Made by a program: the position numbers and the translations under genes. The notes under the pieces were generated by a model. That model searched no databases and was not told the origin of the DNA. It saw only the letters and a list, made by a program, of their open reading frames with translations. This document shows, in pieces, positions 1-9,067 of a stretch of DNA of 64,000 nucleotides (position 1 is its first letter; each line of letters begins with the position of its first letter). The stretch is from the NCBI RefSeq assembly GCF_032444005.1, contig NC_091288.1:203608001-203672000 (forward strand), written 5' to 3'. The DNA is from Ranitomeya imitator (Eukaryota).

Positions 1-1316
1 AAAGCTTGTAAGTCACTCACTCTCCTAGCAGAGGTTAGGGCTACTAGGAAGGCTGTTTTTAAGGTTAAATTTTTAATGGAGACAGAATCTATTGGCTCAA
101 AGGGGGCTTCTGTTAAGGCGTCTAAAACCAAATTTAGATCCCATGGTGGTAATCTAGGAATATATACTGGGTTACTACGTTCAGTGGCCCTGATAAATCG
201 GGAAACCCATCTATTTCCCGCCACATCACTGTTATATAACGCTCCCAAAGCTGATACTTGGACTCTAAGGGTATTTACCGCCAAGCCCAATTCTCGGCCC
301 CTCTGTAAAAACTCCAGAATAGCCGGAATTGGGACCTTGCCAGAAAAGGGATTTTGGTAGAAGGCAAGGAACTTTTTCCAAGTTTTAGCATAGATTTTAG
401 TGGTAACTTCTTTCCGGCTATTTAAAAGGGTAGATATGAGAGCTTCTGAAAACCCTCTTCTCCTCAATAACTCCCTCTCAAATTCCACGCCGTCAGATGC
501 AGGGATTTCACATTGGGGTAACGGAATGGACCCTGAGAAAGAAGCTCCGGGCTGGTCGGCAGTACCCAGGGGTCGGACACAGACATTGCCCTGAGTAACG
601 AGAACCATGCCCTCCTGGGCCAAAAGGGGGCAATCAGGATCACTCTCGCCCTGTCCTCCCTGATCTTCCTGAGGACTAACGGGATCAGACACATTGGAGG
701 GAACGCGTAAGCTAGAGGAAAATTCCAGTGTATTTGAAGGGAGTCTATTATACAGGGCTTGTCCGCCACCCGAAGAGAAGCGAACTTCCTGGTCTGCCTG
801 TTCTCTCTCGTTGCGAATAGATCGATAACGGGCAATCCCCACAGGTCCACTATCTGTCTGAACACCCGTCGATCTAGAACCCATTCTCCCTGACGTAGAG
901 AATGACGGCTGAGGTAATCTGCCTCTGTGTTGAGCTCTCCCCGAATGTGCACAGCTGATAGAGAGCGAAAGTGGGCTTCGGCTATTTCGAGTATGTCTGT
1001 GGCGGTGTTCATTAGGGATCTTGACCTTGTACCCCCTTGATGGTTGAGATACGCCACTACTGTTGTGTTGTCTGTCTGGACTCTTACATGTGAATCCTGC
1101 AGAGATGGAAGCAACCTGAGTAAGGCCTTCTTCACTGCCGTGAGCTCTTTCCAGTTTGAGGACTCTTGAGCCTCTAAGAGAGACCATTGCCCTTGAGTCC
1201 AGACATCTCCTATGTGAGCTCCCCAACCTATCGGACTGGCATCGGTTGTGACCGTGTTGTCTGGTACTACACTCCAGCGTACTCCTTTCCCTAAATGTCT
1301 TCTGTTTAACCACCAT
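1..1316 (-). CDS. DIRS tyrosine recombinase (ORF3), 3'-truncated by the window edge; not in the ORF track
   Basis: Manual translation: the frame is stop-free from 1424 to base 1, first ATG at 1316. It ends ...PPWDLNLVLDALTEAPFEP...KTAFLVALTSARRVSDLQA, containing the catalytic Arg box typical of DIRS recombinases. Confidence 0.9.
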   Translation of the reverse strand, partial: MVVKQKTFRERSTLECSTRQHGHNRCQSDRLGSSHRRCLDSRAMVSLRGSRVLKLERAHGSEEGLTQVASISAGFTCKSPDRQHNSSGVSQPSRGYKVKIPNEHRHRHTRNSRSPLSLSISCAHSGRAQHRGRLPQPSFSTSGRMGSRSTGVQTDSGPVGIARYRSIRNEREQADQEVRFSSGGGQALYNRLPSNTLEFSSSLRVPSNVSDPVSPQEDQGGQGESDPDCPLLAQEGMVLVTQGNVCVRPLGTADQPGASFSGSIPLPQCEIPASDGVEFERELLRRRGFSEALISTLLNSRKEVTTKIYAKTWKKFLAFYQNPFSGKVPIPAILEFLQRGRELGLAVNTLRVQVSALGALYNSDVAGNRWVSRFIRATERSNPVYIPRLPPWDLNLVLDALTEAPFEPIDSVSIKNLTLKTAFLVALTSARRVSDLQA

Positions 1317-2542
1317 CTCAGACTGTGTAGAGTGGTGGTGGAGAGCCTGAGTCTTCCGCCTAATTGCCCTTGAAGACTTCTCTCTGTATCCAAGACTTGG
1401 GCCTGTAACACTCGAGTGTGGAATTCAGCCCACTGGACGGCTGGTATGCAGGACGTTAGAGATCCCAGAAGGGACATAGCGTCTCTTAAAGTCAGATCTG
1501 GCTTCCTTGTTACCGTACTGATTACAACCCTCTGCTTTTTCTCCTCCGGAAGGAAACATTGTTGCACTTCCGAATCCAGCAGAATACCTAGGAAAGTCTG
1601 AGTTGTTGATGGGTCGAGTCTTGACTTCTCCATATTGACTATCCAACCCAAGTCCTGTAAGGAAGATATGACATGATTTAGGCGAGTACTACACTGGCCA
1701 AAGGAATTTCCTACTACCAGGAAGTCATCCAAGTAGGGTATAATTAACGTATCCTGTTCCCTGACATAGGCCATTACTTCTGCCATGACTTTAGTAAACA
1801 CCCTTGGTGCCATAGATAGACCAAAGGGCATTGCAGCAAACTGAAAGTGTCTGACCTGGTCGTTTAAGCGCACCGCCATTCTGAGGAATTGTTGATGATC
1901 CAGGTGAATGGGCAGATGGTAATACGCATCTTTTAAATCCAGGCCTGTCATATAACATCTGGGAAAGAGAAGATTAGTTGCCGTTTTAATAGATTCCATC
2001 TTAAAGGCATGATACTCTAGATGTTTGTTTAATCTCCGTAAGTTTATGATGGTTCTAAAGGATCCATCTGGCTTGGAGATTAAAAATAAAGGGGAATAGA
2101 ACCCTTTCCCCTGTTGATGTTTTGGAACCTCCACTATGACTTTCTTCCGTCTTAGCATTTGGACCTCTTTTTCAAGGGCCTTTTGTTGGTCTAAGGAATC
2201 AGGGGCAGTTAAGATATAAAATTCAGAAGGTCTTTCCCGGAACTCTAATTTTAACCCTGAATTGATTATACCTAGAACCCAATTGCTCGAAGTTATTTTG
2301 GCCCATTGAGCATGGAAGTATTTTAACCTGCCCCCTACTGGAAGATTTCTATTAACGATAGTTTCTTCTTCTTCTTGAGGAAGATGACGAAGCGTTAAAG
2401 TCCGAACCTTTCTTTTTTGGGTCTGATGGTTCCCAGTCTCGGTTGTGGTAAGGTCTTCGGTATTGGAAGCGTCTCCTGAAGGTATTCCTAAAGGTAGGAT
2501 TGAAAGCTTTAGGAAAACCTTTCTTCCTATCCTCAGCCTTAG
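464..2542 (-). CDS. DIRS pol: reverse transcriptase / RNase H with C-terminal extension
   Basis: The ORF track gives 464..2158 with LDLKDAY, PFGL, YLDD and TDAS..GWG motifs. The frame is open upstream to a TAG at 2543-2545 and includes PVGGRL..F...W..IT...WVL, the usual DIRS pol N-terminus. First ATG at 2158. Confidence 0.93.
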   Translation of the reverse strand, partial: LRLRIGRKVFLKLSILPLGIPSGDASNTEDLTTTETGNHQTQKRKVRTLTLRHLPQEEEETIVNRNLPVGGRLKYFHAQWAKITSSNWVLGIINSGLKLEFRERPSEFYILTAPDSLDQQKALEKEVQMLRRKKVIVEVPKHQQGKGFYSPLFLISKPDGSFRTIINLRRLNKHLEYHAFKMESIKTATNLLFPRCYMTGLDLKDAYYHLPIHLDHQQFLRMAVRLNDQVRHFQFAAMPFGLSMAPRVFTKVMAEVMAYVREQDTLIIPYLDDFLVVGNSFGQCSTRLNHVISSLQDLGWIVNMEKSRLDPSTTQTFLGILLDSEVQQCFLPEEKKQRVVISTVTRKPDLTLRDAMSLLGSLTSCIPAVQWAEFHTRVLQAQVLDTERSLQGQLGGRLRLSTTTLHSLRWWLNRRHLGKGVRWSVVPDNTVTTDASPIGWGAHIGDVWTQGQWSLLEAQESSNWKELTAVKKALLRLLPSLQDSHVRVQTDNTTVVAYLNHQGGTRSRSLMNTATDILEIAEAHFRSLSAVHIRGELNTEADYLSRHSLRQGEWVLDRRVFRQIVDLWGLPVIDLFATRENRQTRKFASLRVADKPCIIDSLQIHWNFPLAYAFPPMCLIPLVLRKIREDRARVILIAPFWPRRAWFSLLRAMSVSDPWVLPTSPELLSQGPFRYPNVKSLHLTAWNLRGSY

Positions 2543-3564
2543 CTAGGATATCATCCAATACCGGGCCAAACAGGTACTCACCCCTACACGGTATTGTACA
2601 CAGTTTAGCTTTCGCCTGGGCATCCCCTTTCCAGGTCTTAAGCCATAGGGCTCGGCGAGCAGCATTTGAGAGACCTGCTGATCTTGCCGCCAATTTTAAA
2701 GAATCCACTGACGCGTCCGCTAAATACGCCACCCCTTCACGTATTTGCGAAAGTGAGTTCAACATCTTGTCTCTGGGCACTTTGGACTTCAGCTGTTCTT
2801 CCAGTTGGGATATCCACACCATGACGGATATAGCCATACACGTGCTAGAGATAGCAGGTTTGAACGCCCCTGCAGTTGATTCCCATACTTTCCTCAAAAA
2901 CATGTCCGCCTTCCTATCTGATGGGTCTTTCAGAAGGCCCACATCCTCCAGCGGCAAGGTACCGGCTTTAGATGTAGAAGCCACCGCTGCATCCACTTTC
3001 GGGACTTTCATCCACTCTGCCAGCTCATTATCTTCAAAGGGATACCTTCTTTTAGCTGATGACGGAAGGAAACCCTTATCCTGCTTATCCCATTCTCTTT
3101 TTATAAGAGTCTTAACCGTATCCACCACCGGGAACGCCTTACGACTCCTCTGGCACAAGCCCGCAAACATTATGTCCTGTGCGGACCTTGGTTCCTTGCT
3201 CTCTGCAACACCCATGGTAGCTCGGACTCCTTTAACTAACATGTCCATGTTGTCCACCGAGAAACAAGGCCTTCCCTCTTCATCTGAGGAGGATGGAGAT
3301 GAGGAGCGGGAACATTCCCCTTCTTGCAGGGACAGGCTAGATCCTGGCAATATGTCCCTGCCCGACCTTTCCTGGCGGCTGCCTCTAAGGGAATAGCTAA
3401 TTTCTTCCCTGATGACCGCTCTAAGGTCTGATGACCGAAGGGGAGCTTCCTCTTCTAAGGTCTGAGATATGCACGCCTGACACAGCCTTTTGGTATAACT
3501 GTCAGGCATTGGTGTCATGCATAGAGCACATTGCTTGTGCTTAGATTTTGTGGTCTTTTTTTCC
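2352..3564 (-). CDS. DIRS gag-like ORF1, exon 2 (CxxC..CxxC finger, basic C-terminus)
   Basis: The track ORF starts at a GTG, not an ATG. An acceptor TTTGTGCTTTGTTTTAG precedes 3564. The protein has CALC...CQAC and ends in an Arg/Ser-rich tail. Confidence 0.85.
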
Positions 3565-3623
3565 CTAAAACAAAGCACAAATAACAGACCATATCAGCAC
3601 CAGGTGTCTGATTTAACACTCAC

Positions 3624-3808
3624 CATAAGGCTGATCCTGTGAATACCGGTTCTGGAGGAGTAGGATCCAAATGTGACGCTGGGGCGCTCGGACGCTGCTG
3701 CCCCCGTACCACGCTGCTGCTGCTTCTCCTTGAGCGGCCGCTACCGCTCTTACTGCGCTGTTCCGTTCCCTCTCCATGAGGGTGCTCGGCGTTCCCTACT
3801 GAGGACAT
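3624..3808 (-). CDS. Putative DIRS gag exon 1 (MSSVGNAEHP...GSALW)
   Basis: ATG in ACCATG context at 3808 and donor TG|GTGAGT at 3623. Phase matches the acceptor at 3565 (TG+G=Trp, then EKKTTK). Confidence 0.65.
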
Positions 3809-4257
3809 GGTTGCGCGCCTCCTATCCTAGGCGTCGCTCTTTTACAGCGCTGCAGCGCTCCTCCCCCGGCTTACCCCGGAAGCGTACCAACTACTTCCGG
3901 GTTCACCAGCGCCGGTGTGGACGCTGCACACCGCGCTCAACCGCGGACCAGGACGGCACTGCCCGACTCCTGGGACGCGCTCCTCATGGCCAGACGAGGG
4001 GGGTCTGCTCGCAGGACACCCCCGACGCTGTTTCCGAGCCCCCGATTCCGCCGTTCCTAAAAGACACCGCGCGGAGGCATGGAGGCCCGGGTAAGACTGC
4101 TGATCCTGCAGGCTCCCGCCGTCCGGACAGGAACCCAAACTGGAGTGGTGAGGGGGACCGCCCCTTTAAATCCTGTAGGTTCCTGTCCGGAAGGTGGGTG
4201 GATCCCCTCTCTCGTAGGGGTGCTGTCGTGGCGATAGGAAAAAAAATGTGTTATTAA

Positions 4258-4548: not shown

Positions 4549-4599
4549 GTTATTAACAAAGTTGTGTCAGAAGTTATATACGCCATGTGTAGTCCTTAC

Positions 4600-4778
4600 C
4601 TGGAACAGCAAGCCACTGGCTCATGGCGGCTACTGCTGTGCTCTGAACCTTTTCCTCAGTGACAAGCTTATCCACAAGGCCAATTTTCAGTGCATCGGGG
4701 GCTGGATACATCTGGCCTAGCTGGAGAGACTGTTCGGTTACACGATTGCCTACGGTGTTGACCATGGTTTCCTTGAAC
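4600..4778 (-). CDS. ECI1: Enoyl-CoA delta isomerase 1, exon 6 (179 nt)
   Basis: FKETMVNTVGNRVTEQSLQLGQMYPAPDALKIGLVDKLV...QWLAVP, bounded by AG/GT, phases 2/1. Confidence 0.95.
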
Positions 4779-5446
4779 CTGAGCGAAATATAGGAAGTTG
4801 TGAATACATTGTTAGAGCTCATCTCAAAGGCAAAACAAAAACGTAAAGGGAGTCTGTCTGATGGTTTGTGCCTATAATAATCTAAAACCTTGTATCATGC
4901 ATGCCTCAGGTAGTGAACTTACAATCTATGAAGGTCCCCTCTCTACTGTGGGCAATTGCCTCACTGCTCACTGACTTAGTGTATGTTCACACATCACTTC
5001 TTTTATTTCTGCACCAAAAACCAAAGTAGTGGTAGGAAAAACAATGCAAACAATGCACATTTTAATTGCATTTTTGCCAATTTATTTCAGTGGGTGAAAA
5101 GAATAACACAAATTGATTTGCTGATCTTGAAAAAAAAAAAAAAAACACACGCAACAGGGATGAAAATACCAGCAGAGGGAAAAAATGCAGCATGTGGATA
5201 AGATTTCAGAAATCTTATCGATTATGCTGGTACTGTAAAACGCTGCATAAAATACGCAGCAAAACACCAGGTATGAATATACGCTTGCTGCATACAACAG
5301 GGAGGCCTACAGCTAATAAAGTAGAGTGCATATGCCTTGCTGGAAATACAAAGCACATTCACGAGATTTCAGTACAGATTGCAGTGACTGTCGCAATGGT
5401 GTAGTCCTCAGTAAAGAGCAAGGGGGAAGCATTAGGCAGGGATTAA

Positions 5447-6050
5447 AGGTACCTTCACACTAAACGATATCGCTAGCGATCTGTGACGTTGCAGCGTCCT
5501 GGCTAGCGATATCGTTCAGTTTGACACACAGCAGCGATCAGAATCCTGCTGTGATGTCGTTGGTCGGGGCTGGAAGGCCAGAACTTTATTTGGTCGCTGG
5601 CTCTCCCGCTGACATCGCTGAATCGGCGTGTGACGCCGATTCAGCGATGTCTTCGCTGGTAACCAGGGTAAACATCGGGTTACTAAGCGCAGGGCCGCGC
5701 TTAGTAACCCGATGTTTACCCTGGTTACCATCCTAAAAGTAAAAAAAACAAACGCTTCATACTTACCTTCCGCTGTCTGTCCTCCGGCGCTGTGCTTTCC
5801 TGCACTCACTGTGAGCACAGCGGCCGGAAAGCAGAGCGGTGAAGTTCATTCTCTGTCCTCCGTAGTACATGCCTGCACAAGACAATCTTGCCTTGCGCAG
5901 GCGTGTACTATGGAGGACAGAGAATGAACTTCAATCCAATATTGCAGCCAGCATGCAGCCAGCGGGTAAGGAAAGGGTGAATCAAAAACCCCCAAACCCC
6001 GCCTCCATGGCTGAAGATTGTTCCCTCCAAATTCAGGTGACAGTGTCCCT
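5447..6050. mobile_element. Fused MITE fragments: Harbinger-like left part and a T2-like right end ending GTGACAGTGTCCCT-TTAA
   Basis: Internal palindromes at 5447-5830. 5836-6050 is the reverse-complement homologue of 31045-31250. Confidence 0.6.
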
Positions 6051-6267
6051 TTAAGTGTGGGGACTGTGGGAGCCGTTGGAGGACTTGTCAGATCATTAAC
6101 ACCATGGAACAAAATAGATTTTCCTTACAATGATAAAAAGGTTCACACAAAGAGCACTTGTAATTATATGAACAATGAAAAAGATCAGATTTCAGACGCA
6201 CCCTCAGTGTTGGGTAAGGTCAGAAGAAACATATCATTAATTTATTTCTGCAAAATTCATACATTAC

Positions 6268-6389
6268 CAGAACGGAGCAACTATGCCAAGTTGGGTCTCG
6301 TTCAAGCCAATGGCAAATTTTGGATTGTCAGCCATAATTCTGTAATCGCAACACATTGCCATGAGGCAGCCACCGGCAGGGCTGGAACC
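6268..6389 (-). CDS. ECI1: ECI1 exon 5 (122 nt)
   Basis: GSSPAGGCLMAMCCDYRIMADNPKFAIGLNETQLGIVAPFW, the crotonase-family PAGG and GLNE motifs, AG/GT bounded. Confidence 0.95.
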
Positions 6390-6746
6390 CTGTGTAATTA
6401 AAGGATGTGATTAGTGCCTTATATTGAAATTATATTGTCACTGTTTTCTAAAATATTTGAGGTTTTCACTTGATTGCAAGCTGATGGGGAGATTTTTATA
6501 TAATGCACAAGTCTGAACTGTAGTTGGGTCATGACATTTTTTTCCATACGGATATATTCTAGGAACAGAAGAAAATTACTGGAATACTTTTCTAACTATA
6601 ATAAATACATCTTAAAGGGGTTCTGTAATAAATAGGACAAGCACAATTCCTGCATTATGGCAGATATGCGATGATGGGAAGTCATTGGTGCATAAGTGGG
6701 CAGCGCTGGAGAGTCTCACCAATGTCAATGGGACCGAAACACTTAC

Positions 6747-6893
6747 ATTGATGGCTGCGATCGTCACCATATTGGACCCATATAACTTCAGCCACATTTC
6801 CTGCACAGCTCTCCAGAAAGCGGCGTAGTGCTCAGCACTTTTCCTACACATCTCTGTGATGTCCAGCCCAGCAGAGAAGATTTTGGGAAATGC
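6747..6893 (-). CDS. ECI1: ECI1 exon 4 (147 nt)
   Basis: AFPKIFSAGLDITEMCRKSAEHYAAFWRAVQEMWLKLYGSNMVTIAAIN, FSAGLD motif, donor GTAAGT. Confidence 0.95.
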
Positions 6894-6991
6894 CTGGAAT
6901 AAAAAAGGAAAAAGAAAAATATAAAAAATGTTTTATATTTACAGTATTTAAACACATTTCTTGATCTTTAGACTATTACTTTAATTGCTCC

Positions 6992-7937: not shown

Positions 7938-8528
7938 AGGGAACCTGTCACCCCCAAAATCGAAGGTGAGCTAAGCCCACTGGCATCAGGGTCTTATCTA
8001 CAGTATTCTGTAATGCTGTAGATAAATCCCCGATGTATCCTGAAAGATGAGAAAAAGAGGTTATATTATACTCACCTGGGGGAACGTCGTGGTCGGTGTC
8101 TCCCATCTTCATAGGAGGACGTCCTCTTGTCTTCAGGCTGCGGCTCCGGCGCAGGCGTACTTTGTCTGCTCTGTTGAGGGCAGAGCAAAGTACTGCAGTG
8201 CGCAGGCGCCAGGCCTCTCTGACCTTTCCAGGCACCTGAGCACTGCAGTACTTTGCTCTGCCCTCAACAAGACAGACAAAGTACGCCTGCGCCGGAGCAT
8301 GAAGACAAGAAGAGGATATCATCGTAAGAAGATAGGAGACCCCCGACTGGACCGCCCATCGGACCGGAGCAGAACCGGGACCGCCCCTGGGTGAGTATAA
8401 TCTAACCTCTTTTTCTCATCTTTCAGGATACATCGGGGGCTTATCTACAGCATTACAGAATGCTGTAGATAAGCCTCTGATGCCGGTGGGCTTAGCTCAC
8501 CTTCGATTTTGGGGGTGACAGGTTCCCT
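7938..8528. mobile_element. T2/Kolobok-type MITE, 591 bp
   Basis: TTAA duplication (7934-7937, 8529-8532). TIR AGGGAACCTGTCACCCCCAAAATCG with long internal inverted arms. Confidence 0.9.
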
Positions 8529-8584
8529 TTAATGGGATTTATCATCAGGCATTACAGTAGTGTGGTACAAGTTGCAGCACCTAC

Positions 8585-8712
8585 AGAAGTTAGGATAACC
8601 CCCCGGCAGCCGCGGTCGATTTCCAGCTTCTCCAGACTTATAGAGAATTCTGTCAGGACGTCCAGGCTGAGGCTGTTCACTGGCGGGTTCTTCATTTTCA
8701 TGACTGCCACCC
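8585..8712 (-). CDS. ECI1: ECI1 exon 3 (128 nt)
   Basis: GVAVMKMKNPPVNSLSLDVLTEFSISLEKLEIDRGCRGVILTS, AG/GT bounded. Confidence 0.95.
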
Positions 8713-9067
8713 CTGAGAGACATACAAAGCTTCATTATTTCTTCCTTATCAGAAACATGAGACTTCAGCTGTGACCTTTGATCAAAAAGCAAATCACCCA
8801 AAGCAGAAACCAATTACTTTTTTTTTAAAGTTTTGTTGCAAGGTATTAGGTATTAGACTACTTTTATTACCAATATGAGGAATGCTGATGACAGAATGTG
8901 ATGGGATAGCCATTTATGCAAATTTATAATGGGTTTTACAAAGGTGTAACTTTACTTACAAAATATAAAATGTGTACCAGAGATATATAAGGACAGCGGG
9001 GGAGCAATAATATATATACATAATATATATATTTTATTTTCCATGTGACTATATTTGGGAGCCATAC

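Follow-up and report, generated by a model that had tools for sequence, protein, structure and literature searches.

Two introns in the gag region of an anuran DIRS1-type retrotransposon and a proposed splicing route to Gag and Gag-Pol

The element and its surroundings

The window, that is, the whole stretch of 64,000 nucleotides analysed here (Ranitomeya imitator, contig NC_091288.1, positions 203,608,001 to 203,672,000 of the forward strand), carries a complete retrotransposon on its minus strand, which begins at about position 4246 and ends 940 bases outside the window, past its start. The whole element is contained in a fetched locus, L031, whose positions minus 3500 give those of the window. 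The 5′ end consists of a T-run and the left inverted terminal repeat (ITR) at 4132..4246 (minus strand, like all element features below), where sibling alignments begin at about 4242-4247. The ITR arms measure 101 nt and are 98% complementary (L031 7632-7732 and 2598-2698), and the halves of an internal complementary region (ICR) pair with both ends (pairs I2 and I3). The coding part of gag exon 1 (3647..3808) comprises 54 codons, is Ser/Arg-rich and ends in Pro (CCG); gag exon 2 (2352..3564) encodes a basic stretch, a CxxC..CxxC finger, a LAP2alpha domain (Pfam PF11560, E 4.7e-23) and a basic tail. Gag has 45 named relatives from frogs and toads, the nearest being those of poison frogs and other anurans. 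The pol frame, 692 codons from stop to stop (464..2542), covers reverse transcriptase and RNase H (RVT_1, E 4.2e-18; RVT_3, E 1.3e-6; the RNase_H Pfam profile matches weakly, E 0.045), and its first Met occurs only at codon 129. A Dam-like methyltransferase was sought in the last 145 aa of pol, which give no Pfam or PHROGs match; DLFA and YAFPP motifs may resemble those of such a domain. ORF3, the tyrosine recombinase, overlaps pol and occupies 1..1424; reaching past the window start, it spans L031 4924-2951 (657 codons), and the ICR and the right ITR come after it. It matches a PHROGs integrase (E 3.3e-9) and, below the Pfam cut-off, PF00589 (E 2.3e-4).

Host exons, presumably of an enoyl-CoA delta isomerase gene, flank the element on the same strand (window 4574-6932 and L031 1860-2049), so that it lies in sense orientation within a host intron. 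A LAP2alpha gag, reverse transcriptase and RNase H in ORF2, an overlapping tyrosine-recombinase ORF, and ITRs with an ICR are all present, and the element is a DIRS1-type retrotransposon, by structure an ordinary anuran DIRS. Assignment to Ngaro or PAT was rejected, as split direct repeats are absent, the termini are inverted and the only direct repeat is one of 25 nt shared by ICR and ITR.

A second, different DIRS copy (its 5′ part) lies 1.2 kb downstream on the minus strand (L031 1-1320) and shows the same layout of the first gag intron, which there measures 83 nt and has a strong U1-type site at +22. In three other copies (L009, L015 and L029), gag exon 2 is interrupted by some 750 nt of inserted sequence. 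In the P0012 lineage (L234, L239), an open recombinase frame of 968 codons begins at the gag stop and has an ATG overlapping that stop, which suggests that the recombinase may be translated there by stop-restart; the corresponding frame of the window family is shorter (657-747 codons). Elsewhere in the window, short ORF-like units are tandemly repeated at 7948-8774.

An 82-nt intron near the start of gag

According to the original prediction, gag is split by a 59-nt intron of phase 2, with a donor at 3623 and a 465-aa Gag as its product. The letters were read correctly: there is an ATG at 3808, a 62-codon ORF, GTGAGT at 3623, CTGAT at 3597-3593 and TTTTAG ending at 3565; in the window copy 59 nt separate the two sites, the join gives 465 stop-free aa, and the long gag frame has no Met before the zinc finger. 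A real spliceosomal intron near the gag start is upheld, but the length, donor, phase and product are not. Gag model P0003 from the database, which is 83% identical, matches the 62-codon ORF only up to the Pro at codon 54 (by eye, exon 1 aligns with the N-terminus of the model as far as this terminal residue), which places the donor at 3646 and makes the intron 82 nt long. This intron 1 (3565..3646) is of phase 0 and has a weak donor CCG/GTA (the slash marks the boundary), a pyrimidine tract and the acceptor TAG/G. In related Gag models of the database, a Ser/Arg-rich N-terminal segment is followed by the zinc-finger region, the junction falling between Pro and Ala or between Pro and Gly.

The alignment of copies that had been proposed as a check recovers a GT intron in 30 of the 30 closest copies, but with a length of 82 nt, phase 0 and the donor at 3646. 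Exon 1 has 54 codons in 28 of these copies and 55 in one, and has lost its start in another. Use of the 3646 donor would give a product of more than 440 aa in 15 of the 30, the rest being broken elsewhere or carrying one extra base (the +1 form, see below). The intron recurs well beyond the closest copies: in all ten subfamily representatives a phase-0 intron of 78-87 nt starts at CCG/GTA, which removes the puzzle of an unusually short intron, and the eight bases after this start show only random-level identity. Gag exon 2 of these representatives is 46-87% identical, apart from one pair at 39% over a short broken piece. A putative branch point, CTGAT, lies at 3593..3597; the distance from its A is 52 nt to the real donor and 29 nt to the internal GTGAGT. 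In the alignment, some of the families share a CTGA-like block. The GT..AG ends, the pyrimidine tract and the conserved phase are those of a U2-type intron. Without splicing, gag invariably runs into a stop ahead of the zinc finger, and the claim that unspliced RNA codes only for a short peptide is borne out, at 61-99 aa in most families.

Two further candidates in this region were rejected. RNA structure over intron 1 is unremarkable (z = -0.65), and a 5′-UTR intron from the donor-like site at 3874 is unsupported, six intronless copies of a sister family having retained the segment. Donor-like sites occur in the 5′ leader of two families (window 3874, L031 at about 991), and L038 has one 517 nt before the donor; the leader sites show no loss in processed copies.

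Intronless copies as records of splicing

Genome-wide copy searches were run on the 5.96-Gb genome. When G000 was searched with related Gags, the best-scoring copies matched without a break, and intronless copies occur in five further groups. Sister families yielded 16 distinct intronless copies, counted among best-scoring candidates (e.g., the best 92 of 29,055), a sample that favours intronless copies. When compared with a relative that has the intron, 15 of the 16 gaps can be placed as GT..AG, 14 starting at CCG/GTA and one belonging to the P0029 group; the gap of L081 is not exactly placed against its 12%-diverged relative. The six copies checked for this have a full-length 5′ end with no other large gap there. 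In the P0004 family, six intronless copies among 54 rows require six changes on the tree, at least four of them forced; no bootstrap tree gives them one origin, and a single origin is rejected by the AU test (p-AU 0.0002). A second family, whose sampling used only exon 2, has one intronless locus among 29 non-seed loci, and the intronless seed L189 is identical to the intron-bearing L190 over 1,950 nt. Neither of the two trees contains an intronless lineage, intronless copies appearing only as tips.

Exact loss of an intron from genomic copies implies that splicing preceded reverse transcription, and these copies are best read as daughters of spliced RNA, each made afresh. Judged from this exact loss in sister families, intron 1 is a real intron and is spliced. 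Intronless siblings had been named beforehand as a finding that would speak against splicing; such copies do exist, but they are rare and independent, and constitute the best evidence for it. The earlier assumption that the element is copied mostly from unspliced RNA is likewise supported. The window's own subfamily, whose acceptor was found in 53 copies, yielded no copy lacking intron 1: the junction search returned one chance match, none at two mismatches, and no spliced form was present among 46 listed junctions, for which the last letter of the pattern shut out most of the closest copies. Intron 1 of the window therefore rests on homology.

Assembled contigs of four of 16 sequencing runs, none of them recorded as RNA, were also compared with the element, and none of the ten listed joints corresponds to either intron; as contigs are prone to drop rare variants, this weighs neither for nor against splicing. 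In three of the runs, contigs connect host exons on either side of the element, so that these runs contain spliced mRNA. Contigs of two runs skip 127 nt of the leader (window 3975-4103) with non-canonical ends, which probably reflects a deletion subfamily. In the more distant P0029 group (L165-L188; 39% Gag identity), a phase-0 intron, mostly of 82-102 nt, lies a few codons further upstream, GTGAGT is the true donor and one copy, L183, is intronless; this arrangement is perhaps the ancestral state.

The internal U1-type site

The GTGAGT originally proposed as the donor is a strong U1-type site inside intron 1 (3616..3626, GT at 3623). It forms a conserved block, with an identity of 0.89 among the ten subfamily representatives vs 0.25-0.33 in its flanks, and is 56-66 nt away from the acceptor. 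Its offset from the intron start is 18-23 nt and takes all three frames. The predicted U1 duplex is stronger here (-7 to -12 kcal/mol) than at the real donor (-4 to -5.5 kcal/mol). Vertebrate splicing needs roughly 50 nt between donor and branch point, and the internal site, 29 nt from the likely branch-point A, is probably too near to serve as a donor. It is likely to act as a U1-binding splicing brake that would keep genome RNA unspliced.

That Gag is a 465-aa protein made by removal of 59 nt from the 3623 donor is very improbable. The better U1 match of this site speaks for it, and the join is in frame in the window copy and in two more of the 30 closest copies, but this frame depends on a single base. 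After the acceptor, an A-run (3556..3562) in a purine stretch is one base longer in the window copy than in 26 of its 30 closest copies. Four of the 30 carry this +1 form, as do five of the 53 copies found genome-wide with an exact pattern (window included), the shorter form accounting for 48 of the 53 and a -1 form for none. In the 26 shorter copies the 59-nt join is out of frame and ends early, at 77 aa in 23 of them, so that the frame fails in 26/30 and 48/53 copies. The four +1 copies are scattered on the tree (four changes, at least two forced) and therefore do not form a lineage, which rules out a clade of +1 copies that uses the 3623 site. The short-intron form was found at none of 23 loci without a detected full intron and at none of the 46 listed junctions, and the offset of the 3623-type site takes all three frames across families. 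Spliced from the 3646 donor, the window copy would yield only 61 aa; its gag is therefore frameshifted (or misassembled), and the neat 59-nt frame reflects either a slip peculiar to this copy or a mistake in its assembly.

A less remote alternative, which we consider rather doubtful on balance though quite possible, accepts intron 1 and takes the internal site as a helper that brings U1 near the weak donor, or as a minor donor. The minor products would then be an out-of-frame RNA, a 404-aa Gag from the ATG that abuts the site in the window's subfamily, or an RNA spliced over a long distance to an acceptor in pol or the recombinase. U1 can activate nearby donors, the strong conservation of the site shows some function, a GTGAGT is the real donor in the P0029 group, and in majority copies an ATG immediately preceding the site shares the gag frame (404 aa). 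Against this, the active P0004 family keeps the block yet has lost its GT (48 of 48 rows shown or tallied), most families have no start codon immediately ahead of the site, the candidate recombinase acceptor is absent from some families, and no copy spliced at the internal site was seen among the copies and junctions examined. A spliced Gag-recombinase mRNA using an acceptor-like site near the pol end found no support, the AG being shifted in four of 14 listed loci (21 taken in). Intron 1 is missing from six of 54 rows in the P0004 family, where the internal site is weakened, and from none of 53 in the window's, a single contrast in a biased sample.

A second intron at the gag-pol boundary

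Intron 2 (2488..2581) is 94 nt long, begins with GTGAGT, ends with TTTAG, is of phase 1 and lies inside the gag coding sequence. It came to light in model P0003, which passes from gag into the pol frame at Cys-Arg-Gly. A search with the gag-pol part of this model gave three matches, L230, L231 and L232, all of which lack exactly these 94 nt; they differ from the window by 7%, 16% and 26%, and all keep intron 1. Among the ten listed representatives (13 taken in), donor and acceptor are kept in seven, one has a GC donor and two have lost the site. Stops in the pol frame occur inside intron 2 in six of ten representatives, and between the acceptor and +240 in none of the ten. Five of 30 automatic gene models from the database run from the position of the intron-2 donor into the VGGRL motif of pol. 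With GT..AG ends and precise removal in three copies, the segment has the features of a U2-type intron, and its removal shifts gag into the pol frame. The precise losses argue firmly that intron 2, too, is real and spliced out.

Loss of intron 2 was observed in none of the other 217 motif matches (some copies having been fetched twice), and no copy lacks both introns, intron 2 being present in all 15 of the intron-1-less copies checked; a doubly spliced RNA is therefore inferred. The donor of intron 2 is gone from the young, many-copied P0012/L190 lineage and from the P0029 group, and Pol can therefore be made otherwise. Splicing of intron 2 would be the way to Pol in the window's clade, though not in all relatives. 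In copies that have lost the donor (L234, L239, L090-L092 and L059), a phase-1 GT/GC donor-like site at +123 and an acceptor-like site at +274 form a pair that would join gag to pol but skip the VGGRL motif. Long open frames in 11 fetched copies were set aside; where the gag end is readable, they are ordinary deletions or frameshifts.

A proposed expression programme and the persistence of the introns

The family carries two introns whose splicing is recorded by related genomic copies, and slow, partial splicing is likely to divide one transcript between unspliced RNA as the genome, an mRNA for Gag with one splice and an mRNA for Gag-Pol with two. One transcript would start in the left repeat, and most packaged RNA would be unspliced, coding only for a 62-aa peptide. 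Removal of intron 1 would give Gag; removal of intron 2 as well would give Gag-Pol and take the place of a frameshift. By arithmetic on majority-type copies, these products are the 62-aa peptide from unspliced RNA, a 457-aa Gag with intron 1 out, and about 1,055 aa with both introns out, i.e., 381 Gag residues and 674 of Pol. The weak donor, together with the stronger U1 site 18-23 nt downstream as a competing decoy, would hold splicing down, and such weak and decoyed signals could keep all three RNA forms present. The doubly spliced mRNA, the brake and selection on the introns are the parts of this scheme that we infer.

The introns may well be under selection, since a few % of new copies lose intron 1 without any sampled daughter lineage, and since the intron persists across families whose Gags are only 46-87% identical. 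If a loss of a few % per round were neutral, the intron would be gone after some tens of rounds. Selection in cis would be the simplest reading, although two trees of this size cannot by themselves establish the sterility of intronless copies, since most copies, with or without the intron, leave no daughters. The fullest version of this view, in which graded splicing runs the whole programme in frog DIRS, the decoy U1 site sets the ratio, and the genome records and then purges the processed daughters, is put forward tentatively, as possible rather than probable.

Two other explanations bear on this programme. Intron 2 could be an accidental cryptic splice at Gly-Glu-Tyr codons, with Pol made by +1 frameshifting or by re-initiation near the gag end. 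The loss of its donor in active lineages fits such an accident, as do the 94-nt length, which follows from conservation of the gag protein, an in-frame join that arises one time in three by chance, and the rarity of intron-2-less copies noted above. We nevertheless regard it as unlikely: synonymous choices keep GT and AG in seven of the ten listed representatives and GC in one more, the three precise losses are independent, and the pol frame is stop-free from the acceptor onward, without an early Met. Less likely again is that the intron is kept as a shield against HUSH silencing of intronless DNA, or for export, with intronless daughters being switched off. In one study, introns protect transgenes from HUSH even when unspliced, but in human cells and with longer introns (PMC8770142), and the intronless frog copies are intact yet appear only as tips. 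A shield of this kind does not account for intron 2, for the constancy of the phase or for the stop that every unspliced form contains; it could act together with graded splicing, which remains our preferred account.

Relation to known systems

Xenopus DIRS_XT/XL is described as having a gag ORF with LAP2alpha, an RT/RH ORF and a YR ORF, ITRs of about 100-120 nt, an ICR and a 5′ T-run (PMC9210276), all of which are found again here. Unlike in that description, from which the strings "intron" and "splic" are absent, the window element has an exon of its own for the gag start and a second intron whose removal can link gag with pol. Nor does the word "intron" occur in an overview of DIRS1, a survey of fungi or the paper on VIPER/TATE (PMC3266345, PMC3783388 and PMC6681497), and the sections obtained of PMC5890265, PMC5718144 and PMC13465315 hold nothing relevant on native DIRS introns. 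Dictyostelium DIRS-1 has the same ITR/ICR layout and overlapping ORFs; in the portions consulted, an engineered intron near its 5′ end is only partly spliced, and both forms are reverse-transcribed (PMC7192593; PMC5633606). These introns are marker cassettes rather than native ones, and the same portions describe no splicing route to Pol.

Among other retroelements, copia sets its Gag supply by splicing. Foamy virus makes Pol from a spliced pol mRNA, apart from Gag, whereas Pol of the window element would be a Gag fusion. In Rous sarcoma virus, the NRS is a U1-binding decoy 5′ site that keeps genome RNA unspliced; the likeness is one of working only, the decoy role of the internal site being putative. 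Unlike retroviruses, the window element has a recombinase and neither integrase nor env. For BARE1, the available part of the report describes a Gag supply set by splicing and separate RNA pools for translation and copying (PMC3735527). In copia and BARE1 the unspliced RNA gives Gag-Pol and the splice gives Gag alone; in the window element the unspliced RNA would give neither, one splice Gag and the second Pol.

The literature searched contains no report on native introns in amphibian DIRS or on such an arrangement, although Repbase entries and supplements may mention an intron. Spliceosomal introns in tyrosine-recombinase retroelements are reportedly mentioned by Goodwin and Poulter in 2004 and by Poulter and Butler in 2015. 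Introns in this class are thus said to be known already, and it is for the two-intron Gag/Gag-Pol arrangement that no earlier report was found.

The arrangement bears on the access of DIRS elements to the overlapping ORFs that lie downstream, and on the way in which a retroelement keeps an intron through reverse transcription. Both questions are made testable by the junctions 3647/3564 and 2582/2487 and by one 8-nt site. Processed daughters provide a natural measure of the copying of spliced RNA (a few %) and suggest strong selection for the intron. For annotation, frog DIRS ORF1 described as a single ORF misses the first 50-60 residues, and the "LAP2-like genes" of databases in these frogs are spliced DIRS Gag.
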